This document shows, one piece after another, positions 12,769-58,629 of a DNA stretch of 64,000 bases (positions within the stretch are counted from its first letter, which is position 1; each line of letters begins with the position of its first letter). The notes below the pieces were generated by a model, which saw nothing but the letters and a program-made list of their open reading frames with translations, ran no database searches and was not told where the DNA came from. This DNA is from an uncultured Bacilli bacterium (GTDB lineage: Bacteria; Bacillota_I; Bacilli_A; RF39; UBA660), in the NCBI GenBank assembly GCA_934102055.1, contig CAKOSE010000003.1:10641-74640 (forward strand), given 5' to 3'. Position numbers and translations under genes: made by a program.

Positions 12769-14415
12769 ATGAGTAAAATTAAAATTTTTGCCCTTGGAGG
12801 GCTTAATGAAAATGGAAAGAACATGTATGTTGTTAATGTAGATGAGAACATATTTGTTTTTGATGCTGGGCTTAAATATCCTAGTGCTAATATGCTTGGA
12901 GTTGATTATATAATTCCTAAGTATGATTATTTAATTAAGAATAAAAAGAAAATAAGGGGTATTTTTCTAACACATGCCCATGATGGCAATATGGGAGCCA
13001 TGCCTGATATTATGAAAGAAATGCCAGAAGTACCTGTTTATGCAACAAAATTTACTATGACTGTTTTAAGAATGGAACTTGAAAAATATAATATAGAAGC
13101 AACTAATTTAAAAGAAATAAGACCCCATTCTAAACTAGATGTAGCAGGTTTTTCTATATTTCCAATAACTGTAACACATTCTATTCCGGAAACTGTAGCA
13201 TTCGTTCTCTATACAAATGATGGTGCTATTGTATATGCAACTGATTTCGTGTTTGACTCTGCTATGCTCGGAGCATACAAAACTGATATTGGTAAACTAG
13301 CATACGTTGGTAAACAAGGTGTTTTATGCCTTATGGCTGAATCAAGCTATGCCTATAGAGAAGGACATACCAGTCCAAAACATAGAATATCCAAAGAAGT
13401 TTGGGACTTACTAAATCAAACAGATGAAAGAGTTATAATAAGTATTTTTCCAGAACACGTATATCGCATTCAAGAAATATTTGATCAAGTAGCAAAAACA
13501 AAAAGAAAAATAGTCCTTATGGGAAGAAAACTTCAAAGACTTGTAAACTATGCAAAAGAATTTAAATATCTACATTACGAAGATGAAATGATCGGAGATT
13601 TATCTAATATTAACGATAAAGATTCTGTTATTCTAATCGCGGACGATAAAGAAAAATCATTCGCATCACTAGAAAAAATCATAAGTAGGTACGATAAATA
13701 CATTACTTTAAAAGAAGGAGATACAGTTCTAATTGCAGAACCTATTTATCCTGGTAATGAAAAGAAAGTTGCAAAAATAATGGATGATTTATCTAGAATT
13801 GATGTTGAAGTAGTAACTTTACCTTTTAAAACACATGCACTTCATCACCCATCAAGCGAAGACTTAATGCAAATGATTAACTTAATGAATCCAAAATACT
13901 ACTTTCCAATAAAAGGAGAGTATAGATACCAATACATGAACGCATCAGTCGCAGAACAAGCTGGTATGGACTCTGATAGAATTCTTCTTAAACAAAATGG
14001 TGACGTTATCAATTTCGTTAACGGTAAACTAATTCAAAAACCAGAACATATTGAAGCAGATGATATCCTTATCGATGGAAATAGTTCAGACGATATAGGA
14101 GATCTTGTCCTAAAAGATAGAGAACTTCTATCAAAAAATGGTATCGTTATAGTAAGTGCAACACTAGATAAAAAAACAAAAAAAATAATCGCAGATCCAC
14201 AAATACTAACAAGAGGATTCATCTATGTAAAAGATAATCTTGATATAGTTGAAAAAACCGAAGCCATTTCTAAAGAAGTAATCGAAGAATGTATTAAAGG
14301 GAAAAAAGTAGATTTCACAGGTATAAAAGTAAAAATAAGAGAAAGACTAAGTGCTTATTTTAATGAAGAAACAGGGTCTGTCCCTATGATTATTACAGTT
14401 ATACTTGAAATATAA
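12769..14415 (+). CDS. RNase J family protein with degenerate metal-binding motifs (J2-like paralog)
   Basis: Collinear with RNase J1 (metallo-beta-lactamase, beta-CASP, C-terminal domain): FALGGLNENGKN, VTHSIPET, ATDFVFD. However, motif HxHxDH reads HAHDGN (12973-12990) and PIHGE reads PIKGE (Lys codon 13911-13913). Confidence 0.8.
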   Translation: MSKIKIFALGGLNENGKNMYVVNVDENIFVFDAGLKYPSANMLGVDYIIPKYDYLIKNKKKIRGIFLTHAHDGNMGAMPDIMKEMPEVPVYATKFTMTVLRMELEKYNIEATNLKEIRPHSKLDVAGFSIFPITVTHSIPETVAFVLYTNDGAIVYATDFVFDSAMLGAYKTDIGKLAYVGKQGVLCLMAESSYAYREGHTSPKHRISKEVWDLLNQTDERVIISIFPEHVYRIQEIFDQVAKTKRKIVLMGRKLQRLVNYAKEFKYLHYEDEMIGDLSNINDKDSVILIADDKEKSFASLEKIISRYDKYITLKEGDTVLIAEPIYPGNEKKVAKIMDDLSRIDVEVVTLPFKTHALHHPSSEDLMQMINLMNPKYYFPIKGEYRYQYMNASVAEQAGMDSDRILLKQNGDVINFVNGKLIQKPEHIEADDILIDGNSSDDIGDLVLKDRELLSKNGIVIVSATLDKKTKKIIADPQILTRGFIYVKDNLDIVEKTEAISKEVIEECIKGKKVDFTGIKVKIRERLSAYFNEETGSVPMIITVILEI

Positions 14416-24509: not shown

Positions 24510-27500
24510 ATGAATAATGAGAAGAAAAGTAATAAATTAAAGATAGTTACTTTTATATTAATGATTTTACTTGTTTTAACAGGAACAAGTTATGCAATTA
24601 TTACATGGAGTTATGAAGGAAAAACAGATAATTTACTAAGTACCCCAGATATTTCATTTAGATTTCTAGAATCCAATAAAGAAGTAATAGGAATAGAAAA
24701 CGGAGTACCTATGACAGATGAACAAGGTATGAATCAAACTGGAACAGGTAACGTATTTGACTTTGAAGTAAAGTCAAAATTCAATGCTAATACCGACGTA
24801 AAATATACAGTTAGTCTAGAAAAACTAACCATCGATAGTGGTAAAACCCAAATCCCAGAAGATGAAATAAAAATATATGTCGAAGACTTCGAAGGAAAAA
24901 CAGTCCTAAAACCAACAAAAATAAGTGATCTAGATAATTATAATTTATTTATCAAAACAGATAGACACAGTAAAGATAACGAAGAAATAAGTTCAAAATA
25001 TAGACTAAAAGTATGGTTAGACGAAAGTGTAGACGTTTTTACAAACCAAAACAGACAATATAAATTCAAAATAAACGTAGGAACAACAGAACAAGAACAA
25101 AACCCAAATCAAACATATAACCTAGTTTATAATCTAAACGGAGGAACAGGTAACATAAGTAGTACTTCATTCAAAGTAGGAAACAAAGTAACAATAACAA
25201 GCACAGTTCCCACAAAAGATGGTTATAAATTCCTAGGATGGAGTACTAATAAAAATAATAGTAATGCAGAATATACAAGCGGAGAACAAGTTTCATTAAC
25301 AAACGCTTATAACAACAACGTAACACTTTATGCAATATGGCAATCAAATGCATATACAGTAAAATACGATAGCAATAGTGGTGCAGGAACAATGACAGAT
25401 AGTTCATTTAAATATGGAGAATCTAAAAAACTAACAAAAAATACATTCACAAAAGAAGGATATACATTCCTAGGATGGAATACAGATAAAACAAAACAAG
25501 AAGCACTATATACAGATGAACAAGTAGTTAGTAATCTAATTAAATCTGGTAATTCAGTAACACTTTACGCAATATGGAAAGCAAATACATATACAGTAAA
25601 ATATGACAATAACGGTGGAAACGGTAGCATAGAAAATACCACATTCACTTATGGAGAATCAAAAAAATTAACAAAAAATACATTCACAAAAACAGGATAT
25701 ACATTCCTAGGATGGAATACAGATAAAGAAGCAACAACAGTACTTTACACAGACGAAAAACAAGTAAGCAACCTAACAAAAGAAAATAACAAAATAATCA
25801 CTCTATATGCAATATGGAAAGCTAACACATATACAGTAAAATACGATAACAATGGCGGAGTAGGAACAATAAGTAACAGTACATTTACCTATAATCAAAC
25901 CAAAAGCTTAACAAAAAACACATTCACAAAAGATGGTTATAAGTTCCTAGGATGGAACACAGATAAGTATTCAACAAAAGCCCTATACACAGATGAGCAA
26001 CAAGTAAGTAACCTAACCATAAAAAATAATGATACCATCACCTTATACGCAATATGGGAAGAAATAACTTATACAGTCAAATATAATGCAAATGGTGGAG
26101 CAATTAAAGATGTACAAAGTATAGAACCTGATGTTGATTATTACCCAGGAGGTGGTAGTTTAATTGAAAAGGGAGAAAACTGGACAAAAGAAGGAGATGT
26201 ATATAAAAGTAGAGATTTTACGACTGATCTAGATTCACTTTTATTTTCTCCTATAACGGTAGAAAAAGCTAGTGTATTATCTCTAGATGTAGTAGTTTCA
26301 CAAAAAGAAGAAAATATGATTATGGTTGGTCTTCTGTCATCAGACTTTGAAAATATTCTAGAAAGAAAAATGATCCCTGGTACTCCTGGTTTAACTGATG
26401 AATCTAACCTGCCATATCAAACTATTGAGTTTTCTTTAGAACCTGGTTCTTACATTCTAGGATTTGAGACTGCTAATTATAATCCTTCAGAAGGATTGAA
26501 CAGAGCTTATGTAAAAAATATAAAAATAACAAGTTCATCTGATAAAACAATGGAAGATTCTGTATTTAAAGGTTCTAGTAAATTATCTAAAAACTTATAT
26601 CAAAGAGATCATTATATCTTTAAAGGATGGAGTTTAGATCAAAACGCAACAAGTGCAACATATCAAGATGAACAACAAGTAAGCGGTTTAGCAGCAAAAG
26701 AAAATGATACAGTTAATTTATATGCAATATGGGAAAAAGAAAAATACAATGTCAATGTAGTAGTACAAAATGGAACAGTAGATACTGCAAGTAAACAAAT
26801 TCCTTATAATGAAAATGGAACATTTAATTTAACTTCTAATTCAGAAGGTGCAGTAGGAATAGTAACATGTACAAATAATCAAATAGGACAAATAGAAAAC
26901 AATGTACTTACAGTATCAAACGTGAGTGCAAGTACTACGTGTACAGTAATGTTTATAAAAGAATCTACAACATTATATGAAGATGGAACTCTTATAATAA
27001 ATGAAAATGCCAAAAATAGAATTACTAATCTATCAACACATGGAAATATAACAAAAGAGTATGAGCCAATGAGTGATAGCAATTCATATGTCATGAATTT
27101 TAGTAGTCAACCATGGAAAAATGAAAGAAGTTCAATAAAAAGTGTGGAAATAGGACAAAAAACAGGACCTATATCAACAGCATGGTGGTTTTATTATTTA
27201 ACTAATATGGAAGAAGGAGATTTTACAAATTTAGATACCTCAAGTGTAACAAATATGCAATCTATGTTTGAATCTGCAGGTGAAAGTTCTACTACATTTG
27301 AATTAACAGGATTAAACAATTTTGATACATCAAAAGTAACAGATATGGGCAGAACATTTAGTAATACAGGTAAAGCTGCCACAAATTTTGATATAGGAGA
27401 TTTATCAAACTGGAATACCTCAAGTGTAACAAGTATGGGTTCAATGTTTAATGAAGCAGGTTCAAGTGCTACAACATGGTCAATAGGAGACCTATCAAAT

Positions 27501-28151
27501 TGGGATGTATCAAAAGTAACATATATGGTTGCAATGTTTTCTTCTGCGGGCAAAAGTGCTACAGCATGGTCGATAGGGAACCTATCAACTTGGAACACAT
27601 CAAAAGTAACTAATATGCGTTACATGTTTGCCTTTTCAGGTAAAAGCTCCACAACATGGACTATAGGAGATATATCAAGCTGGGATACATCAAATGTAAC
27701 AGATATGGGTTTTATGTTCTCCGAAGTAGGTTATAGTGCTACAACATTTAATTTGGATTTGTCAAACTGGGATACGTCAAAGGTAACAACAATGAATAAT
27801 ATGTTTAAATCTGCAGGTTATAGCACTACAGGTGCGGCTTCGGTTAATGTATACAATTGGAATGTTTCTAACGTAACAGATATGGGTAGTATGTTTTCTA
27901 GTGCTTTTTCTAAAGCAAACTCCATTCGTATTGATTTTTCTGAATGGGATACATCAAATGTGACAAATATGTACAAAATGTTTGATAACATGGGTAAAAC
28001 TGGCACTCAATGGCGGGTTTATATTCCAACAAAAACGGGTAGTTTAACTAACACAAGTTCTATATGGTATGGTTCTTCTCTAGACGTATATGCAACTGGG
28101 CAATTTCTTAAGAAAAATTCATCCGGAGGTGGAGGAGGCTCTTCTAGTTAA
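24510..28151 (+). CDS. large mosaic surface protein: TasA-like N-module, Listeria-Bacteroides (Flg_new) repeats, inserted beta-rich domain, Ig-like region, DUF285/BspA-type leucine-rich repeats
   Basis: One N-terminal TM/signal. aa 1-195 are paralogous to 33388 and 47318. aa 201-745 carry five YxVxYxxNGG...GYxFLGW...LYAIW repeats. aa ~885-1165 carry about ten xWDTSxVTxMxxMF repeats. Ends in GGGGGSSS with no LPXTG. Confidence 0.85.
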   Translation: MNNEKKSNKLKIVTFILMILLVLTGTSYAIITWSYEGKTDNLLSTPDISFRFLESNKEVIGIENGVPMTDEQGMNQTGTGNVFDFEVKSKFNANTDVKYTVSLEKLTIDSGKTQIPEDEIKIYVEDFEGKTVLKPTKISDLDNYNLFIKTDRHSKDNEEISSKYRLKVWLDESVDVFTNQNRQYKFKINVGTTEQEQNPNQTYNLVYNLNGGTGNISSTSFKVGNKVTITSTVPTKDGYKFLGWSTNKNNSNAEYTSGEQVSLTNAYNNNVTLYAIWQSNAYTVKYDSNSGAGTMTDSSFKYGESKKLTKNTFTKEGYTFLGWNTDKTKQEALYTDEQVVSNLIKSGNSVTLYAIWKANTYTVKYDNNGGNGSIENTTFTYGESKKLTKNTFTKTGYTFLGWNTDKEATTVLYTDEKQVSNLTKENNKIITLYAIWKANTYTVKYDNNGGVGTISNSTFTYNQTKSLTKNTFTKDGYKFLGWNTDKYSTKALYTDEQQVSNLTIKNNDTITLYAIWEEITYTVKYNANGGAIKDVQSIEPDVDYYPGGGSLIEKGENWTKEGDVYKSRDFTTDLDSLLFSPITVEKASVLSLDVVVSQKEENMIMVGLLSSDFENILERKMIPGTPGLTDESNLPYQTIEFSLEPGSYILGFETANYNPSEGLNRAYVKNIKITSSSDKTMEDSVFKGSSKLSKNLYQRDHYIFKGWSLDQNATSATYQDEQQVSGLAAKENDTVNLYAIWEKEKYNVNVVVQNGTVDTASKQIPYNENGTFNLTSNSEGAVGIVTCTNNQIGQIENNVLTVSNVSASTTCTVMFIKESTTLYEDGTLIINENAKNRITNLSTHGNITKEYEPMSDSNSYVMNFSSQPWKNERSSIKSVEIGQKTGPISTAWWFYYLTNMEEGDFTNLDTSSVTNMQSMFESAGESSTTFELTGLNNFDTSKVTDMGRTFSNTGKAATNFDIGDLSNWNTSSVTSMGSMFNEAGSSATTWSIGDLSNWDVSKVTYMVAMFSSAGKSATAWSIGNLSTWNTSKVTNMRYMFAFSGKSSTTWTIGDISSWDTSNVTDMGFMFSEVGYSATTFNLDLSNWDTSKVTTMNNMFKSAGYSTTGAASVNVYNWNVSNVTDMGSMFSSAFSKANSIRIDFSEWDTSNVTNMYKMFDNMGKTGTQWRVYIPTKTGSLTNTSSIWYGSSLDVYATGQFLKKNSSGGGGGSSS
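25110..26069 (+). repeat. four tandem ~234-240 nt coding repeats (Flg_new units)
   Basis: Units start near 25110, 25344, 25581 and 25821. The middle units share identical runs of up to about 30 nt, e.g. ggatatacattcctaggatggaatacagataaa. Confidence 0.85.
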
Positions 28152-33354: not shown

Positions 33355-33387
33355 AATTTATAGAATAATACTAGGATAGTGATAATA

Positions 33388-33957
33388 ATGAATAGATTTA
33401 GAAATGTTTTCAGTGTTTTTATTGTTATATTTGGACTTGTATTAATGTTTGTCGGAGTAAGCTATGCCATTCTAAGTGGTAACGTCTCATCAGGAAATGA
33501 ACACATTATAAAAACAGGAAGCGTTTGGCTTAAACTAACCGAAGATTACGATAGCATTTCCAAAAAACTTTCCATTCAAGAAGATTCCGAAGGACTCCTG
33601 CAAGAAGACTATTACACATTTAATATCAGTAACATAGGAAGTAGTCCTGCACAGTTCAGCATAAGTCTTGTAAATGATGTCCCAGAAGACTATACAGGAA
33701 ACGTACTTGATACAAAATACATAAAAGTAGGACTAGAAATAAATGGAAAAGAACACGGACCATTCACCCTAGAAAAAGTAAATAACATAATAGATAGTGA
33801 TATCATATATAAAAAAGAACTAGTAAATTATAAACTAAGACTATGGTTAGATAAAAGTAAAGAAGAAGAAATAAATAACTTCGAAGATTATAAACTCTTC
33901 TTAAAACTTAAAGTAAATGCAGAACAAAGATCTAATAACTTAGATAACGGATCTTAA
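33388..33957 (+). CDS. stand-alone TasA/camelysin-like module protein (paralog of the N-termini of 24510 and 47318)
   Basis: Signal/TM ending GVSYAIL, then TGSVWLKLTE, YTFNISN, NYKLRLWLDK and a terminal YKLFLKLKVNAEQ. ATG at 33388 after GTGATAATA; the track start at 33379 is a GTG in the SD. Confidence 0.6.
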   Translation: MNRFRNVFSVFIVIFGLVLMFVGVSYAILSGNVSSGNEHIIKTGSVWLKLTEDYDSISKKLSIQEDSEGLLQEDYYTFNISNIGSSPAQFSISLVNDVPEDYTGNVLDTKYIKVGLEINGKEHGPFTLEKVNNIIDSDIIYKKELVNYKLRLWLDKSKEEEINNFEDYKLFLKLKVNAEQRSNNLDNGS

Positions 33958-34001
33958 AATAATAAATATAACTTTCAATTTAAAAATCAATAAATCTTTT
34001 G

Positions 34002-39057: not shown

Positions 39058-39660
39058 ATGATTGATATGAGTAATTATGATAAAATTTTAGACTATGCAA
39101 AAAAAAATAATGGTTATATTACTGCTAAAGAAGTAGATGATTCAGGTATTAATAGTACATTTTTAAGTAATTTGGTTAGTGATAAAAAACTAGAAAGGGT
39201 TGGGCCGGGCATTTATAAATTGCCTGAATATCCAATTGATAATTTTTATATCTTATCAAAAATTAGTAAAAATATGTGTTACTCTCATGCAACTGCTTTA
39301 TATCTACACGATATGTCTGATAGAATTCCGTTAGTTTATGATGTTACTGTTCCGTATAATTATAGTGGTAATTTAATAAATAATAAAAATGTTGCATTAA
39401 GATATGTTAAAAATGATATTTTAAATCTTGGTATGATTGATGTTAAAACTATTAATGGTTTAAATGTTAAGTGCTATGATTTAGAGAGAACAATATGTGA
39501 TATGATTAGAGATAAAAACTGTGTCGATAAGGAAATTTATTCTAAAGCATTAAAGGAGTATGCCAAAAGTAAAAATAAAAATATTTTGAATTTAGTAAAG
39601 TATGCTAAAAAGTTAAATATAGAGAATGAAGTTGTTGAAATAATGGAAGTGTTGTTATAG
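39058..39660 (+). CDS. abiEi: type IV toxin-antitoxin antitoxin, AbiEi family
   Basis: N-terminal winged HTH (GYITAKEV..LSNLVSDKKLERVGPGIYKL) and a C-terminal AbiEi_4-like domain (SHATALYLHD..RTICDM). An alternative ATG at 39067 has the better SD spacing. Confidence 0.8.
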   Translation: MIDMSNYDKILDYAKKNNGYITAKEVDDSGINSTFLSNLVSDKKLERVGPGIYKLPEYPIDNFYILSKISKNMCYSHATALYLHDMSDRIPLVYDVTVPYNYSGNLINNKNVALRYVKNDILNLGMIDVKTINGLNVKCYDLERTICDMIRDKNCVDKEIYSKALKEYAKSKNKNILNLVKYAKKLNIENEVVEIMEVLL

Positions 39661-40512
39661 GTGAATTCTGATAAATTAAATAGTATAATCAAAAATAAGT
39701 CTAAAGGAAATAGTAATTTGGCACATCATTTTCATCAAATGTTTTTCTTTGAACATGTCTTAATGCGACTTGAGAAAAGTAAATATAGGGATAATATCAT
39801 TTTAAAAGGTGGTGTTTTGTTATCATCTATTATAGGGGAAGATTTAAGGACTACTAAAGATATGGATGCCTCTTTAAAAAGTTTGCCATTAGATATAAAT
39901 TCTATTATGAATATTTTTGATGAAATACTTTCTATACCTATTAATGATGGTGTTTATTTTAAAATAGAGGATATTAAAGATATAAGATTAGAGGATGAAT
40001 ATGGTGGATTTAGGATAAATGTAAGAGCTTCTTTTTATAGAATTAGAACTAATTTTTTTATCGAAATAACAACTGGAGATATTGTTACTCCAAGAGAGAT
40101 AAGATATAAATATAATTCTATTTTTGAGAATAAAAAAATAAATATTATGGCTTATACTATAGAAACTGTTATTGCGGAAAAGTTTGAAAGTATTATTAGT
40201 AAAAACATTACTACGACTAGAGCAAAGGATTTTTATGATTTATATATGTTGATGAATAAGAACGAAAAGGATATAAGAAGCAAGAATTTGGCTCAAGCTA
40301 TTGTAAATACTTTTTCTAAAAGAAATACTGAGTTTAGCATAAATAATTTTAGGGAGATAGTTGAAATCATGAAAAATAGTAATACTTTAAGAAGAATATA
40401 TTTATCTTATCAAAAAAAATTGGAATATACTAAAAAAGTAGATATTGATAGTACTATAGAGACAATGAATAAAATTATAAGAATATTGAAGGTTGAATTG
40501 GTTTTAGTATAA
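39661..40512 (+). CDS. abiEii: nucleotidyltransferase toxin, AbiEii/AbiGii (DUF1814) family
   Basis: ILKGGVLLSS..TTKDMDA (hGG..DxD nucleotidyltransferase motif), ETVIAEKFESI, AKDFYDLY. GTG start immediately after the abiEi stop. Confidence 0.8.
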   Translation: MNSDKLNSIIKNKSKGNSNLAHHFHQMFFFEHVLMRLEKSKYRDNIILKGGVLLSSIIGEDLRTTKDMDASLKSLPLDINSIMNIFDEILSIPINDGVYFKIEDIKDIRLEDEYGGFRINVRASFYRIRTNFFIEITTGDIVTPREIRYKYNSIFENKKINIMAYTIETVIAEKFESIISKNITTTRAKDFYDLYMLMNKNEKDIRSKNLAQAIVNTFSKRNTEFSINNFREIVEIMKNSNTLRRIYLSYQKKLEYTKKVDIDSTIETMNKIIRILKVELVLV

Positions 40513-40696: not shown

Positions 40697-41344
40697 ATGG
40701 ATAGTGGTGGATTAAATAATAGACAATTTGTTACAGTAGCAATAATCATAATCATATGTGGAATAGCAATAGTAGGGCATGACTATTTTTTAGCAAAAAA
40801 GGCTGGTGTATATGAAGATATGAGTATCTTATTATCGCAAGAACCAGAATATGTTGAAAATATTCCAAGTCAAAATAACACTAACCAAACTGGAGACACA
40901 TCTGGAAGAGTTCCAAAGAAGAATATAAATTATAAATATATAGGAAGACTAAAAATACCAAAAATAAATTTTAATAGAGGATTTGTAAAGTATGGAACAT
41001 CTGGTAATAATGTAGATCAGAATATAGCTATTTTAAAAGGTTCAACGTATCCAGATGATGCATATAGTAACTTTATAATAGCAGGTCATAATGGTTCAAG
41101 GTGGAATGCATTCTTCTCAAGATTAGATAATCTAAGGCTTGGAGATACTGCAACAGTAACTTATAAAGGAAGAGAGTATAACTATAAATTAGTAAAAACA
41201 TATAAAGATAGACAGTATGATGGTGTAACATTGTATAGACACTCATCAAAAAAACAATTAACGTTAATAACATGTGCAAGACCAGACTATAGAACTTATT
41301 ACTTAGTTTCAGTCTTTGAACTAACAGATGAAAAAAAGATATAA
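40697..41344 (+). CDS. sortase (class undetermined)
   Basis: N-terminal TM, catalytic His in IIAGHNG, TLxTC motif LTLITC, downstream Arg (RPDYRTYYLV). Confidence 0.8.
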   Translation: MDSGGLNNRQFVTVAIIIIICGIAIVGHDYFLAKKAGVYEDMSILLSQEPEYVENIPSQNNTNQTGDTSGRVPKKNINYKYIGRLKIPKINFNRGFVKYGTSGNNVDQNIAILKGSTYPDDAYSNFIIAGHNGSRWNAFFSRLDNLRLGDTATVTYKGREYNYKLVKTYKDRQYDGVTLYRHSSKKQLTLITCARPDYRTYYLVSVFELTDEKKI

Positions 41345-41359
41345 AAGGAGGAGATGAAA

Positions 41360-42484
41360 ATGACAGATTTTTCAACAACACAAAGATTGCAAACAATATT
41401 TGATACAATTTTTTCATCATCATTTTTTATCTCACTTTCAGTAATATTAGTACTTACACTTGTAATGTTTATAGTAAATACAAAAATAAAAAGTAAAGCT
41501 CCAAGAATTATTTCTGTAATATCATATATATTATTAATGATTTTGGTTTTAGCAAGGTATGGAAACTACGTGTTATCAATAAATGATAGTATAGTAGAAA
41601 AGTTTTTTAAAGCAATGTATTTTCCAAATTTAGTAGTATACGTTGCAATGCTTATAATAACAATATTATTAATAATAATAAATTTTTTAACAACAAAATA
41701 TAGTCAAATAACCAAGATATGTAATATTTTTTGTTTTAGCATTATTTGGTTTTTATTCGTTTTAGTACTTGATGTTGCTAAGAAAGAAAGTATCAATATT
41801 TATGAAATAGAAGAAATATATAACAATAGTACTTTGATGATTTTACTTCAAGCAAGTATGGCAATTTTTTGTATTTGGCTTGGACTTTTAATAACAAACT
41901 TTGTAATAAGAAAATTATCAGATAAATTAGACGAAGGGCAAAGAAAGAATCAACTAAAAAACAGCAATCTACAAATGAACGATTATACAAATTATTATAA
42001 TGGACAACAAAATACTTATAATGATAACAATAACTATAACAGTAACAATCAATATAATCAGTATTCAAATGCTAATCAAAACTATAATAATTTCAATCAA
42101 GGTAATTATAATAATAGTTATGTAGATTATAATAGTTTTGATGGAAACAATTATAATAATAGTTATATGCATTATGATAGTTTTAATCAAAATAACTATA
42201 ACAATGATTATAATTCGAATAATTATGACAGTTATAATAATGTACAAAACAGTTTTAATAACGAGTACAATAACTATAATTATAACAATGAATATAATAA
42301 CAATTATGGTTATAATAGTGAATATAACTATAATAATCAAAATGTTGTTCAAAAACATAAAGAAAAAAAACAGGAAGATGAAATAAGAGAACTAAGCGAT
42401 GAAGAATTTTGGAATGTTTATAGACACAATCCTGATCAAAATCAAAATAATAATACCACTAATAACTCTAATAATTACTGGTGA
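41360..42484 (+). CDS. polytopic membrane protein with a ~170-aa Asn/Tyr/Gln-rich low-complexity C-terminal region
   Basis: About five hydrophobic helices in aa 20-190, then NYNSNNQYNQYSNANQNYNNF... up to the acidic/basic tail. SD AAGGAGGAG favours the ATG at 41360. Starts 16 nt after the sortase stop. Confidence 0.6.
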   Translation: MTDFSTTQRLQTIFDTIFSSSFFISLSVILVLTLVMFIVNTKIKSKAPRIISVISYILLMILVLARYGNYVLSINDSIVEKFFKAMYFPNLVVYVAMLIITILLIIINFLTTKYSQITKICNIFCFSIIWFLFVLVLDVAKKESINIYEIEEIYNNSTLMILLQASMAIFCIWLGLLITNFVIRKLSDKLDEGQRKNQLKNSNLQMNDYTNYYNGQQNTYNDNNNYNSNNQYNQYSNANQNYNNFNQGNYNNSYVDYNSFDGNNYNNSYMHYDSFNQNNYNNDYNSNNYDSYNNVQNSFNNEYNNYNYNNEYNNNYGYNSEYNYNNQNVVQKHKEKKQEDEIRELSDEEFWNVYRHNPDQNQNNNTTNNSNNYW

Positions 42485-45106: not shown

Positions 45107-46465
45107 ATGAATAATCAGAACCAAAATAATATCCCAAATCAAAATGTAAATAACATGCAAAATCAGAATAACAATCAACCAAATAGTAATAGGCAACCTG
45201 AGGAAAAAGTATTAACCCAAACCAAAGAAGGTTTAAAAGCTGATACACTTAAGAGTAAAAAAGTAAAATATAAATATAGAGTAGAAAACCAAAAGGGAAA
45301 AAAGTTTTATGGTTATTTAGATGCTTATAATCAAGCCGAAGTAATAGCATATCTTGAAAATGAAGGATATAAAATAATTAAAATAGAAGCTCAAAATTCG
45401 ATATTAGATATAAATATAGGCAGTAATAAATTAAACTATTCAGAGTTAGCATTTTTATTGACGCAACTTTCAACATATTTAAAAGCTGGTATACCTTTGA
45501 TTGATTCAGTAAGAATTTTAGAAAAACAATCTGTAAAAAAAGAAAAGAAAAGAATATATTCAAATATAATATATGAATTATCTAAGGGTGAAAGTTTTTC
45601 TAGTGCTTTAGCATCACAAGGAAATGTATTTCCTCCACTTTTAATTAATATGGTAAGAACGGCAGAGCTTACTGGAGACTTACCAGAAATTCTAGATGAT
45701 ATGAGAGACTATTATGAGTCAATAGATAAAACAAGAAAAGCTGCAATTAGTTCTATGATTTATCCATCCATATTATTTGTATTTGCAATATGTGTACTTG
45801 TTTTTATCCTAGCATACGTAATTCCATCTTTTGTGTCATTATTTAATCAACAAAATATAGCTCTTCCATTAATAACTAGAGTTGTTTTAGCAGCTAGTGG
45901 TTTCTTAACAGGGCATAAGTTTATTATAATTGGAGTGTTACTTGGTCTTGTGATAGGATATATCTTATTATATAAATATGTAAAAGGTTTTAGAAAAACA
46001 ATGCAAACAATAGCGATGAAATTGCCTGGGTTTGGTAAAATAATAATTTATAGAGAAGTTGCAATGTTTACAAAGACATTTGCATCATTATTAAATCATA
46101 ATGTATTTATAACAGATTCAATGACGATACTTAGTTCAGTATCAAATAATGAAGTATTTAAAGATATAATAAATGAATCATTAGAATACTTGGCAAAAGG
46201 TGCGAAGATAAGTGATGCATTTGAAGATAAATGGGCATTTCCAGTAGTAGCATATGAAATGTTAGTAACAGGAGAAAATACAGGAAGGCTCCCAATGATG
46301 ATGAGTTATGTTGCTGATTATTATCAAAACCTACATGCAACTTTAGTAAAGAGAATAAATACATTTATAGAACCATTACTAATAATATTTATAGCAATAA
46401 TAGTAGGAATAATAGTAGTATCAGTAGTTATACCAATGTTTGGTATGTATGACGCTGTATTATAG
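45107..46465 (+). CDS. type II secretion/type IV pilus platform protein (PilC/GspF/ComGB family) with an N/Q-rich N-terminal extension
   Basis: Two T2SSF repeats (LTQLSTYLKAGIPL.. and FTKTFASLLNHNVFI..), three TM helices, C-terminal PMFGMY. The first ~35 aa are NNQNQNNIPNQNVNN... Confidence 0.8.
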   Translation: MNNQNQNNIPNQNVNNMQNQNNNQPNSNRQPEEKVLTQTKEGLKADTLKSKKVKYKYRVENQKGKKFYGYLDAYNQAEVIAYLENEGYKIIKIEAQNSILDINIGSNKLNYSELAFLLTQLSTYLKAGIPLIDSVRILEKQSVKKEKKRIYSNIIYELSKGESFSSALASQGNVFPPLLINMVRTAELTGDLPEILDDMRDYYESIDKTRKAAISSMIYPSILFVFAICVLVFILAYVIPSFVSLFNQQNIALPLITRVVLAASGFLTGHKFIIIGVLLGLVIGYILLYKYVKGFRKTMQTIAMKLPGFGKIIIYREVAMFTKTFASLLNHNVFITDSMTILSSVSNNEVFKDIINESLEYLAKGAKISDAFEDKWAFPVVAYEMLVTGENTGRLPMMMSYVADYYQNLHATLVKRINTFIEPLLIIFIAIIVGIIVVSVVIPMFGMYDAVL

Positions 46466-46473
46466 GAATTAAC

Positions 46474-47256
46474 ATGGAAATAAACACAATAAATATAATT
46501 TACTTAATACTATTTTTTATACTTGGTCTTGTTTTAGGGTCATTTTATAATGTTGTAGGACTAAGACTCTGTAAGGGAGAAAGTTTAATATATCCCCCTA
46601 GTCATTGTACTAAATGTAATCATAAACTCAAGTTTTACGAACTTGTTCCTGTTTTTTCTTATATATTCTTAAAAGGAAGATGTAAAAATTGTAAAGAAAA
46701 AATAAATATTATGTACCCAGTTATAGAATTCTTAACAGGGATACTTTTCGCATTAAGTTATTATGTATATGGACTTAGTCCAAGTTTAGTGTATTCTTTA
46801 TTATTATCATCTTTATTTATAATAATAACTGTAACAGATTTAAACTATTATATAATACCAGATAGCATTTTAATCTTTTTTGGATTATTAATCTTTATTT
46901 ATAACATAATAACAAAAGGGATACTTGATGCTTGTACATATGTAGTGTATGGTTTAATAATGTTTTTATTTATGTATGGTTTAATGAAACTAGGAAACCT
47001 TTTATTTAAAGAAGAGAGCTTAGGTGGCGGAGATATAAAGTTAATGGCTGTACTAGGTATGACAGTTAAACCTTTAGTATCAGTTTTATCTTTATCACTA
47101 GGAGCCTTTCTAGCACTTCCAGGTTCAATATATTTACTCTTAAAAAAGAAAGATAAGATAATACCATTTGGCCCATTCATAGTAGGAGCATTTATAATAG
47201 TAATGTTAATGGGAATAGATACGCAGGATATAATAAATTATTTAACAAATAAATAG
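46474..47256 (+). CDS. prepilin peptidase (A24 family, PilD/ComC-like)
   Basis: N-terminal Zn-finger CTKCNHKL..CKNCKEKI, catalytic Asp motifs (TVTDLNYYIIPD and GGGDIKLMA), multiple TM helices. Confidence 0.85.
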   Translation: MEINTINIIYLILFFILGLVLGSFYNVVGLRLCKGESLIYPPSHCTKCNHKLKFYELVPVFSYIFLKGRCKNCKEKINIMYPVIEFLTGILFALSYYVYGLSPSLVYSLLLSSLFIIITVTDLNYYIIPDSILIFFGLLIFIYNIITKGILDACTYVVYGLIMFLFMYGLMKLGNLLFKEESLGGGDIKLMAVLGMTVKPLVSVLSLSLGAFLALPGSIYLLLKKKDKIIPFGPFIVGAFIIVMLMGIDTQDIINYLTNK

Positions 47257-47317: not shown

Positions 47318-48787
47318 ATGAAGAGTGTTAATATAAATAAAAACAGAAAAACAACAATAATAGTTTTGTTATTAGTGTTACTTTCTTTAGCAGGTTCTAT
47401 TTCCTATTCCCTATGGAACTATTCCTTTAAAGGAAAAGAAAATAAAATAACAACCGGAGACGTTTCAATAAAGTTTTTAGAAAGTAATACCAATGTAATA
47501 AGTCTAAAAAATGCCCTTCCAGAAGATGATACTACAGGTAAAACTAATAGTTCATATGATTTTATTGTTACTACTAAAGCAAATTATAATATTAATTTAA
47601 AATATGATTTAAGTATAGAAAAGTTAAGTACAGACACAGGATACACAAGTTTAAATAATAATCAAATAAAAATTTATTTAACAGATTCTAGTAATAATGT
47701 TTTACTAGGACCAACTCTAATAAGTGATTTAAGTAATAATCTATTATATACAAAAACAAATACTCATAGTAGTACTAAAACTGAAATAAATGATAAGTAT
47801 AAACTAAGAGTATGGATAGATAAAGATGTAGATGTAAGTAGTTGGACTAAGGATACAAAGAATCAATATAAATTTAAGATAGGTATAAAGAGTGAAGAAG
47901 CAAACTCTCTAAACGGAGTAGATACTTTAATAAAAAAAGAAGGATCAGATGGCCTAGAAAAAATAGTTCATAGTGCAGATAGTAGCCTCCAAATAGGAGC
48001 AACTGAAGATATAACAGAATATAGATTTAGAGGAGCAAATCCCAATAACTATGCAATATTTAATAATGAATCCTGGAGAATAATAGGAATTTTTCCAACA
48101 GAAGGATCAGATGGTTCTATAAAAAATAGAATTAAGCTTATTAAAAGCGAAAGTCTAGGAAGTACTTCTTGGAATAACAGTAATGGTCTTACAAATATTT
48201 CTAGTAGTAATAGTGATTCTGGTGTTAGGTTTTTAGGAAGCGTGCCAGGGAAAGGTGATGGTTGTAGTGGAGACTCTAATAATTGGAGCACTTCTAATTT
48301 AAAAGAATATTTTGATTCTACTTATTATAACTCTATTTCTAACAATAGTATTATTGATAACGTTAAGTATTATTTAGGAGGTTTTACTATTGTTCATAAT
48401 ACTAAAAGTGATTGGTATAATTATGAAAGAAGTTCTTTGAATGATTATTATCATTCTTCTGACTCTAAAAATGTATATGGATATATTGCTTTAATGTATT
48501 TAAGTGATTATGGTTATGCTGCCTCAGATAGTTGTTCTGCAAATCTTGGAAATTATAATTCTAATTCATGCAAGAATAATAACTGGTTATTTTTAGGAAG
48601 TAAAGAGTACACTTTAAGTCATTCCTATAATACCGGAACTGTTACATCTATTGATAGTGATGGTTCTGCCACTGTGGGTACTTGTACTAGTGAAAAGTAC
48701 CCAGTAAGACCTGTACTTTACTTAAAACCAAATGTCAAAATAAGTGGAACAGGTACAACCTCTGATCCATATAAGTTTGCTATTTAA
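47318..48787 (+). CDS. secreted or anchored protein: TasA-like N-module plus C-terminal DUF6273-like domain
   Basis: aa 1-195 are paralogous to 24510 and 33388. The C-terminal region has WRIIG, NNWLFLG and YPVRPVLYLK, which resemble the W-LRS...VRPAL pattern of a widespread Firmicute extracellular domain (recalled from memory). Confidence 0.6.
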   Translation: MKSVNINKNRKTTIIVLLLVLLSLAGSISYSLWNYSFKGKENKITTGDVSIKFLESNTNVISLKNALPEDDTTGKTNSSYDFIVTTKANYNINLKYDLSIEKLSTDTGYTSLNNNQIKIYLTDSSNNVLLGPTLISDLSNNLLYTKTNTHSSTKTEINDKYKLRVWIDKDVDVSSWTKDTKNQYKFKIGIKSEEANSLNGVDTLIKKEGSDGLEKIVHSADSSLQIGATEDITEYRFRGANPNNYAIFNNESWRIIGIFPTEGSDGSIKNRIKLIKSESLGSTSWNNSNGLTNISSSNSDSGVRFLGSVPGKGDGCSGDSNNWSTSNLKEYFDSTYYNSISNNSIIDNVKYYLGGFTIVHNTKSDWYNYERSSLNDYYHSSDSKNVYGYIALMYLSDYGYAASDSCSANLGNYNSNSCKNNNWLFLGSKEYTLSHSYNTGTVTSIDSDGSATVGTCTSEKYPVRPVLYLKPNVKISGTGTTSDPYKFAI

Positions 48788-58119: not shown

Positions 58120-58629
58120 ATGAAAAAAGAAACAAAAAAAGAATTAATTATATATGGAAGTATAATATTAGCCATAATTTTAATTAGAACGTTTGTTATA
58201 ACCCCAGTAAGAGTAAATGGAAGTAGTATGTATAGTACTTTAAAAGATGGAGAAATCATGATTCTAAATAAACTAGATTACAAATTACATGATATTGAAA
58301 GATTCGACATAGTAGTAATCAAAACAGATGAAAAAAAGATTATTAAAAGAGTAATTGGCCTTCCAGGAGAAACCCTAAAATACGAAGACAATACCCTTTA
58401 TATAAATGACAAAAAAATAGATGAACCATATCTAAAAGACGCTACTGAAGATTTCAACATCACATCTTTAGGATACGATAAAATACCTGATGATTGCTAT
58501 TTCGTACTAGGAGATAACAGAGATAATTCAAGCGATAGTAGAATCATAGGACCCGTAAAAAAAAGCCAAATAACAGGAAGTGCCTCACTAGTACTTTTCC
58601 CATTTAGTGAAGCTGGATATAGAAAATAA
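58120..58629 (+). CDS. lepB: signal peptidase I (P-type, Ser-Lys)
   Basis: TM, then VNGSSMYSTL (Ser box), IKRVIGLPGE (Lys box), GDNRDNSSDSR. Confidence 0.9.
   Translation: MKKETKKELIIYGSIILAIILIRTFVITPVRVNGSSMYSTLKDGEIMILNKLDYKLHDIERFDIVVIKTDEKKIIKRVIGLPGETLKYEDNTLYINDKKIDEPYLKDATEDFNITSLGYDKIPDDCYFVLGDNRDNSSDSRIIGPVKKSQITGSASLVLFPFSEAGYRK

Follow-up and report, generated by a model that had tools for sequence, protein, structure and literature searches.

A predicted β-sandwich module at the N terminus defines a large unannotated protein family in uncultured gut Bacilli and usually precedes adhesin-type passengers

We analyzed a 64,000-nucleotide (nt) stretch of contig CAKOSE010000003.1 from an uncultured Bacilli bacterium; this whole stretch is referred to as the window, and coordinates count from its first letter. 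Three proteins encoded in it, of 1213, 489, and 189 amino acids (aa), begin with a shared module of about 165 residues, and this N-terminal module is what defines a large, unannotated family of proteins in uncultured gut Bacilli. The family combines a strongly conserved cleavage-site motif and N-terminal extension with a predicted β-sandwich, and in several relatives its genes stand beside genes for SipW-type signal peptidases. An earlier inspection of the letters and translations (the sequence-only reading) had likened the module to the TasA/CalY/camelysin fiber subunits. Here, we propose, with about even confidence, that the module is a TasA-like donor-strand scaffold, a fiber subunit of the TasA/BsaA/AbpA type, that displays the cargo attached to it.

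Results

The three open reading frames (ORFs) and their parts are listed in Table 1. BLASTP aligned the N-terminal modules of the 1213-aa and 489-aa proteins across 172 residues with 42% identity (E = 7e-42), while the 189-aa protein was far more divergent (E = 4e-5 against the 489-aa module and 0.002 against the 1213-aa module). Against a leave-out family hidden Markov model (HMM), built with no window sequence in it, the 489-aa protein reached 216 bits, the 1213-aa protein 182 bits, and the 189-aa protein 54.6 bits, the last corresponding to E = 1e-9 for a database of 1.8 billion proteins; on the strength of this score, the 189-aa protein is a secure member. No further ORF of the window matched the module. 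These results bear out the proposal that the three N-terminal regions are true paralogs of one module, which can be aligned from end to end over roughly 195 residues, and every motif quoted for them was found: the helix ends GTSYAI, GSISYSL, and GVSYAIL, the following blocks DISFRFLES, DVSIKFLES, and SVWLKLTE, and the KY(R/K)L(K/R)VW(L/I)D ending. When L004:6189-7562, from a relative with ~94% DNA identity to the window, is set against window 33383-33966 and 47419-48151, two of the genes prove to be arranged differently. In L004, the 489-type gene directly follows the homologue of the 189-aa gene and looks disrupted, with a 151-aa ORF (P0006) alone remaining. The two genes are adjacent there and 13 kb apart in the window, so that a rearrangement has split a probable gene pair.

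To define the family, we carried out an exhaustive profile search of 1.84 billion representative sequences clustered at 50% identity, which returned 5,325 representative clusters at E ≤ 1e-3, of which 2,602 also passed E ≤ 1e-10. Almost all of the best 150 matches had the module start within about the first 25 residues, in proteins of 124 to 1710 aa. Among the first 149 proteins returned, 34 were stand-alone modules (≤260 aa) and 115 were longer. When 71 long members were scanned with Pfam (E ≤ 0.001), the cargo included DUF285 (20 proteins), Flg_new (13), and BspA-type leucine-rich repeats (LRR_5; 8), with FNIP, PT-HINT, and A2M found occasionally. Given this cargo pattern, adhesin-type passengers are the rule in the family and not a peculiarity of the window. 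Thus, the fusion architecture, for which conservation in relatives had been an open point, is both conserved and dominant. Neither Pfam (2025) nor NCBIfam (2026) holds a model for the module, and both gave only chance-level matches of transmembrane type (ETRAMP, FliL, and DUF4635). Profiles of 3 and of 38 members, compared with the sequences of solved structures, found nothing below E = 0.2, and the sole source name met for any member was "hypothetical protein."

The family occurs chiefly in uncultured Bacilli from human and animal guts. Relatives come from metagenome-assembled genomes (MAGs) labeled Bacilli, Tenericutes, "Mycoplasma sp.," or Erysipelotrichaceae, as well as from Clostridium sp. 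CAG:451, and several MAGs carry multiple module loci. The window organism, whose DNA stems from a gut metagenome contig of 101 kb (ENA ERZ28613854), is itself a spore-forming, walled member of the Bacillota, as seen from its genes for Gpr, SpoIIP, SASP, PBP, and LytR. Two MAGs labeled "Bacteroidaceae bacterium" and "Lachnospiraceae bacterium" (L004 and L010, from CAVFIB01; L007 and L015, from CAVGVM01) have contigs up to ~94% identical to the window, with radC-mreC synteny and sipW among their genes; these bins are probably contaminated or mislabeled.

Column conservation was evaluated in 297 nonredundant members aligned to the family HMM. The proteins open with a basic start and ~15 hydrophobic columns, followed by G (85%)-x-[ST] (89%)-[YF] (87%)-A (90%). 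This block satisfies the −3/−1 rule for signal peptidase I and is the best-conserved block of the family, with 2.69 bits per column versus 1.67 in the core. The 16 residues after it are conserved at 1.54 bits, about the level of the core, and follow an i, i+2 pattern, in the order aromatic (83%), aromatic (78%), G/S (90%), N (83%), I/L (91%), T/S (85%), and G (70%); the first strand comes next and then a 97%-invariant Glu. For the 489-aa protein, AlphaFold predicted the mature module to be a β-sandwich of ten strands with a mean predicted local distance difference test (pLDDT) score of 90.6 and a predicted template modeling (pTM) score of 0.82. Most of the domain reached a pLDDT of 96 to 98, and the 16-residue extension was disordered (pLDDT of ~44). 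The extension is thus conserved with β periodicity but has no place in the monomer, as expected of a donated strand. In Foldseek searches, the top matches were donor-strand pilins, namely FimG (probability, 1.00), CS20 (0.99), and the pilin domain of PapG (0.99 to 1.00), and the TasA homologue AbpA (7ueg) was recovered at a probability of 0.87 to 0.97.

Related loci tie the module to SipW. Gene neighborhoods were inspected for 98 module-bearing loci among 113 sequences from genomes and metagenomes, the window included. Same-strand SipW-type genes accompany module genes in six distinct arrangements, within ~2 kb in all but L108: three tandem stand-alone modules and then sipW (L104 and L105); two modules, sipW, and a further module (L110); two modules and then sipW (L032 and L111); a single module and then sipW (L070); sipW, two small secreted proteins, and then a 653-aa module-plus-cargo protein (L010 and L122); and a module-plus-cargo protein of 637 aa followed by a SipW-like gene ~4.4 kb downstream (L108). 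Two of these SipW-type peptidases were scored on TIGR02228, and both passed its cut-off of 51.85, with 79.7 and 95.2 bits. L010 and L004 come from one MAG, and L004 is ~94% identical to the window in DNA; therefore, a near relative of the window organism encodes SipW. A metagenome scan with the SipW protein of L010 yielded no confirmed locus. In the window, the signal peptidase at 58120 scored 169.9 bits on TIGR02227 versus 22.9 bits on TIGR02228; it is of the P type and the sole one present, as the sequence-only reading had stated. The SipW search suggested there accordingly gave a divided answer, with none in the 64-kb window and SipW beside module genes in six distinct related loci, one of them in an organism ~94% identical to it.

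Stand-alone modules also recur as tandem pairs, in which a protein of ~216 to 227 aa is followed by one of 240 to 254 aa, in L005 (11591-13008), L018, L020 (6976-11435; three pairs in tandem), and L021 to L024. The longer partner scores more weakly, contains Cys, and ends in FSFKLKIGATQVLS. These recurrent pairs suggest major and minor subunits, and tandem stand-alone paralogues are the layout of filament loci.

Two further loci were noted during this survey. Upstream of hrcA-grpE-dnaK, a conserved locus of gut Bacilli (L116:1-11300, L119:1-11400, L113, and L010:2279-9329) holds up to four SipW-like peptidase genes, together with a DUF2357 protein and several secreted proteins of 200 to 360 aa. 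The latter have TasA-like signal ends (GTSTYAWFTAN, NSFAWFIY, and KTYALFES), and an A-x-Q strand closes some of them; they matched neither the module HMM nor TasA nor any Pfam family. In L122:12049-17783 (GCA_963590285.1, CAVANY010000014.1), the 653-aa module-plus-cargo protein is the target of a diversity-generating retroelement (DGR). The variable repeat of 136 nt occupies the 3′ end of its gene (13860-13995), and the template repeat lies 368 nt downstream (14228-14363) and is 85% identical to it; by reading of the alignment, ~19 of the 20 mismatches fall at template adenines. Genes for bAvd and a reverse transcriptase come after the template repeat, and parts of this locus are present in L010, L124, and L125.

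The cargo in the window was evaluated with Pfam and NCBIfam. Flg_new (PF09479) matched five stretches of the 1213-aa protein (E = 2.1e-51; 172.4 bits against a cut-off of 27), DUF285/PARCEL (PF03382) matched with E = 1.5e-47 (160.7 bits against a cut-off of 25), and NCBIfam recognized the PARCEL repeat (TIGR02167, 123 bits) and List_Bact_rpt (TIGR02543, 95 bits). The Flg_new and DUF285 assignment is therefore borne out, with both Pfam scores exceeding the curated cut-offs. The "DUF6273-like" label given to the cargo of the 489-aa protein did not stand: DUF6273 (PF19789) reached 10.3 bits versus a cut-off of 23.5 (E = 0.63), despite an alignment that covers profile positions 29 to 171 of 172. 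A 60%-identical relative gave E = 0.074, and 13.3 bits were reached by relative P0018. This cargo had no Pfam match at E ≤ 0.001 and no match among sequences of solved structures. None of the three window proteins has an LPXTG sorting signal, and a reading of them as sortase substrates was rejected for that reason, although the window has a sortase gene (40697-41344). Just downstream of that gene, 41354-42484 encodes a 376-aa protein without a Pfam match, which has several hydrophobic segments and then a long Asn/Tyr/Gln-rich low-complexity tail. The window also contains, amid housekeeping and sporulation genes, a pair of AbiEi antitoxin and AbiEii nucleotidyltransferase toxin genes (39058-40512).

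We compared the module with TasA after checking the TasA sequence against PDB 8AUR and collecting 276 PF12389 relatives. An hhalign comparison of 38 family members with 30 TasA-family members, signal peptides included, placed 61 N-terminal columns in register (E = 8.5e-5; probability, 60%); the aligned part extends no further than signal peptide, extension, and first strand. The two consensus sequences, with the cut marked by a slash, are G-x-[ST]-[YF]-A / x-[FYW]-x-[YFW]...N-x-[IL]-x-[TS]-G-x-[IV]-[ST]-x-x-x-x-E in the family and G-G-T-W-A / A-F...N-x-F-A-x-G-T-L-D-L in TasA. In the global and low-mact modes of hhalign, alignment confidence was zero beyond the first 61 columns. The final xLxFxFxAxQ strand, which the sequence-only reading had taken as part of a TasA-like layout, is a feature of the 189-aa protein and one subfamily, but only ~20% of stand-alone members have it, and the A-x-Q ending was dropped as a family signature.

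Table 1. Parts of the three module proteins and selected other genes of the window
Feature	Coordinates	Strand	Basis or remark
ORF, 1213 aa	24510-28151	+	Confirmed at these coordinates
Signal-peptide-like segment, 1213-aa protein (aa 1-29, ending GTSYA)	24510..24596	+	Read from sequence; putative cleavage
N-terminal extension and β-sandwich module, 1213-aa protein (aa 30-195)	24597..25094	+	BLASTP, family HMM
Cargo, 1213-aa protein	25095..28151	+	Flg_new and DUF285/PARCEL repeats
Best Flg_new stretch, 1213-aa protein (aa 203-275)	25116-25334	+	Pfam
Best DUF285/PARCEL stretch, 1213-aa protein (aa 1019-1130)	27564-27899	+	Pfam
ORF, 189 aa from ATG	33388-33957	+	192 aa if started at GTG 33379
Signal-like segment, stand-alone 189-aa paralogue (aa 1-27, ending GVSYA)	33388-33468	+	Sequence
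Module, 189-aa protein (ending LKLKVNAEQ)	33469-33954	+	Family HMM
T2SSF/PilC-like gene	45107-46465	+	Pfam; context only
Prepilin peptidase A24 gene	46474-47256	+	Pfam; context only
ORF, 489 aa	47318-48787	+	Confirmed at these coordinates
Signal-peptide-like segment, 489-aa protein (aa 1-31, ending GSISYS)	47318..47410	+	Sequence, family alignment
N-terminal extension (aa 32-47) and β-sandwich module (aa 48-195), 489-aa protein	47411..47908	+	AlphaFold, Foldseek
Cargo, 489-aa protein (aa 198-489)	47909..48787	+	Sub-threshold DUF6273 resemblance
Signal peptidase I, bacterial P-type, sole one of the window, beside rplS	58120..58629	+	TIGR02227, Pfam Peptidase_S26

Discussion

In the mechanism that we propose for the donor-strand scaffold, module proteins would be exported by Sec and retained briefly at the membrane through the signal peptide. 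A SipW-type peptidase, where one is encoded, or else the general peptidase would cut after G-x-[ST]-[YF]-A, and the freed 16-residue extension would then enter the ~150-residue β-sandwich of a neighboring subunit as a strand, that is, by donor-strand exchange. Stand-alone members, of which the 189-aa protein is one, would make up the fiber, while cargo-bearing members such as the 1213-aa and 489-aa proteins would join the same polymer, decorate or cap it, and display their adhesin-like domains. Cleavage, polymerization, and co-assembly are the steps that we infer. The conserved G-x-[ST]-[YF]-A block favors processing, since a plain membrane anchor would need no such motif.

Several results weigh against this proposal, and some of them bear also on the suggestion of the sequence-only reading that the module is a divergent true member of the TasA/CalY/camelysin family (PF12389), which we consider improbable. 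The register of the N-terminal 61 columns, the A-x-Q ends that recall the FSFEATQ of TasA, and the presence of AbpA among the Foldseek matches all speak for membership. TIGR04088 could be added to these, as it matched 3 of 38 members, but the matches were weak (E ≥ 0.017, the best being 0.017) and stood among other weak matches of transmembrane type. PF12389 itself was unmatched by the three window proteins (E ≤ 1), by 13 members (E ≤ 10), and by the 71 long members (E ≤ 0.001), while AbpA reaches it at 97% HHpred probability over its whole length. Without signal peptides, the hhalign comparison was insignificant (E = 0.08; probability, 0.7%), although the same 28-column stretch was still the best. 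A TasA HMM found nothing at E ≤ 10 in 1,510 ORFs of related loci. Attempts to bridge the gap failed as well: a GATQ-ending subfamily aligned over the N-terminal 66 columns only (E = 2.5e-4; probability, 43%), and five other small secreted families of the conserved SipW locus gave probabilities of ≤52% both against TasA and against the module. TasA (5of1 and 8aur) was missing from the Foldseek top 50 of either model, and TM-scores were below 0.5 to every solved structure (pilins, 0.31 to 0.46; root mean square deviation, 8 to 10 Å). Of the TasA/camelysin layout, then, the signal-peptide end and the residues next to it do resemble the SipW-cognate pattern, and the match to Peptidase_M73 and to the mature domain fell away. 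By every test run, the module lies outside Peptidase_M73; it is best called a functional analogue of TasA and is possibly a very remote homologue. The loci themselves add to the points against a TasA-like scaffold, with no SipW homologue in the window and, in most related loci, no SipW gene within 10 kb. Finally, the AlphaFold monomer forms a complete and confident sandwich without the extension, so that an open groove stays putative.

Such a complete monomer would suit a different role, in which the module is a membrane-proximal stalk of monomeric surface proteins and no polymer forms. The helix would be an uncleaved anchor, or it would be cleaved and the module would bind the envelope, and the β-sandwich would merely space the C-terminal adhesin domains from the cell. 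The cargo-bearing proteins lack LPXTG or another recognizable anchor, so that an N-terminal anchor would explain their attachment; the hydrophobic stretch and G-x-S-Y-A together span ~20 residues, and with the signal peptide kept, residues 6 to 37 of the 489-aa protein were modeled as one continuous helix. The shortage of dedicated peptidases near most loci fits this reading too. However, a stalk leaves unexplained the stand-alone members without cargo (34 of the 149 top representatives, some in tandem pairs and triplets), the placement beside SipW-type peptidases, and the fact that conservation peaks where the helix ends, ahead of a "linker" with β-strand periodicity. We regard it as the main rival, possible but rather unlikely. 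Far less credible is a reading in which the three proteins are substrates or components of a system akin to type IV pili or type II secretion. The genes for T2SSF and Peptidase_A24 share the strand of the 489-aa gene, stop 62 nt before it, and stand alone between a transketolase gene and that gene. In Clostridium perfringens, moreover, type IV pilus components are needed for BsaC secretion and for efficient secretion of BsaA oligomers (PMC11580942). Nonetheless, the prepilin motif (a leader G and then F/M-x-x-x-E) occurs in no frame of the window, no pilus ATPase or pilin gene lies beside module genes, and the whole 64 kb holds no pilus ATPase. Only contigs of this organism itself (L001 and L002) show the pilC/pilD adjacency, and it is absent from the 98%-identical L035, the ~94%-identical L004, and ~110 other loci. 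We rejected the type IV pilin reading because the motif is absent and the adjacency is not conserved.

The closest known systems to a donor-strand scaffold of this kind are the fibers of TasA, BsaA, and AbpA, which the family resembles in the architecture of its signal, in its extension and size, and in its paralogy and linkage to SipW. TasA/CalY of Bacillus, processed by SipW, share with the module a signal peptide that ends in [ST]-aromatic-A and is followed by x-aromatic, a conserved N-terminal extension, a first strand of the form N-x-[hydrophobic]-x-x-G-x-[hydrophobic]-x-[hydrophobic], and a β-rich domain of about 170 to 200 residues. Tandem paralogues by a SipW-type peptidase in module relatives and the A-x-Q final strand of some members extend the likeness. 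The mature domains, however, have no detectable sequence similarity, and Foldseek does not recover TasA; the module is smaller and lacks the helices of TasA. Most module members also have large C-terminal passengers; in contrast, the 120 listed TasA relatives range from 146 to 375 aa.

BsaA and BsaB of C. perfringens are remote TasA relatives encoded in a sipW-bsaA-bsaB-bsaC operon; residues 28 to 38 of BsaA form a disordered N-terminal extension, and a base-growth model has the newest subunit still anchored by its uncleaved signal peptide (PMC11580942). An engineered C-terminal FAST fusion to BsaA was secreted and surface exposed (PMC11580942), which provides a precedent for a C-terminal passenger. 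The module resembles these proteins in a disordered extension of ~11 to 16 residues after a SipW-type signal, in the lack of LPXTG, and in a sortase gene somewhere nearby, and it differs from BsaA in its natural cargo fusions, which are new. AbpA, an archaeal bundling pilin (PDB 7UEG), is a TasA homologue assembled by donor-strand exchange (PMC9245690). Automated structure comparison fails even for the accepted pair of AbpA and TasA. AbpA is likewise an all-β subunit of similar size, and its Foldseek probability is high, but the TM-score is only 0.31 to 0.33, and AbpA reaches PF12389 while the module does not. AbpA can be processed by the general signal peptidase if no dedicated one is nearby, and the window may be the same case. 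In the chaperone-usher pilins that head the Foldseek matches (TM-score, 0.34 to 0.46), the sandwich is completed by the N-terminal strand of a neighbor, and two-domain adhesins such as FimH and PapG join a pilin domain to a binding domain. The order is reversed here, with the module N-terminal and the cargo C-terminal. Furthermore, a Gram-negative periplasmic chaperone and outer membrane usher have no place in a spore-forming Gram-positive host, and neither was present among the annotated neighbors.

A more far-reaching possibility, which we consider unlikely, is that gut Bacilli build heteropolymeric "modular" fibers, in which stand-alone and paralogous cargo subunits share one membrane-anchored filament, possibly locked by intermolecular isopeptide bonds. 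The cargo of such fibers may comprise DUF285, Flg_new, BspA-type leucine-rich repeats, and even DGR-diversified lectin-like domains. Three conserved residues (489-aa numbering) could conjecturally form the isopeptide triad: N42 in the extension (83%), E55 after the first strand (97%), and K118 in the IKIYL strand (89%). They recall the N-E-K triad of BsaA, compared here by description only, although the N-to-E spacing is 13 residues in the module versus 21 in BsaA. An association was seen between loss of N42 and loss of K118 (Fisher p = 2e-4, with no correction for phylogeny).

A module family of more than 5,000 clusters (50% identity) without a Pfam or NCBIfam model may bear on how these gut Bacilli attach to their hosts or to one another. 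If the module polymerizes like TasA, BsaA, or AbpA, donor-strand fibers would extend to a new sequence family, and this would be the first natural case of such subunits with large adhesin passengers, displayed independently of sortase. If modular fibers do exist, they would constitute a new way for Gram-positive bacteria to show interchangeable adhesins without sortase. Even if the module is merely an anchor, a new N-terminal domain has been defined, and it serves as a marker for a large group of candidate adhesins, one of which is the target of a diversity-generating retroelement.

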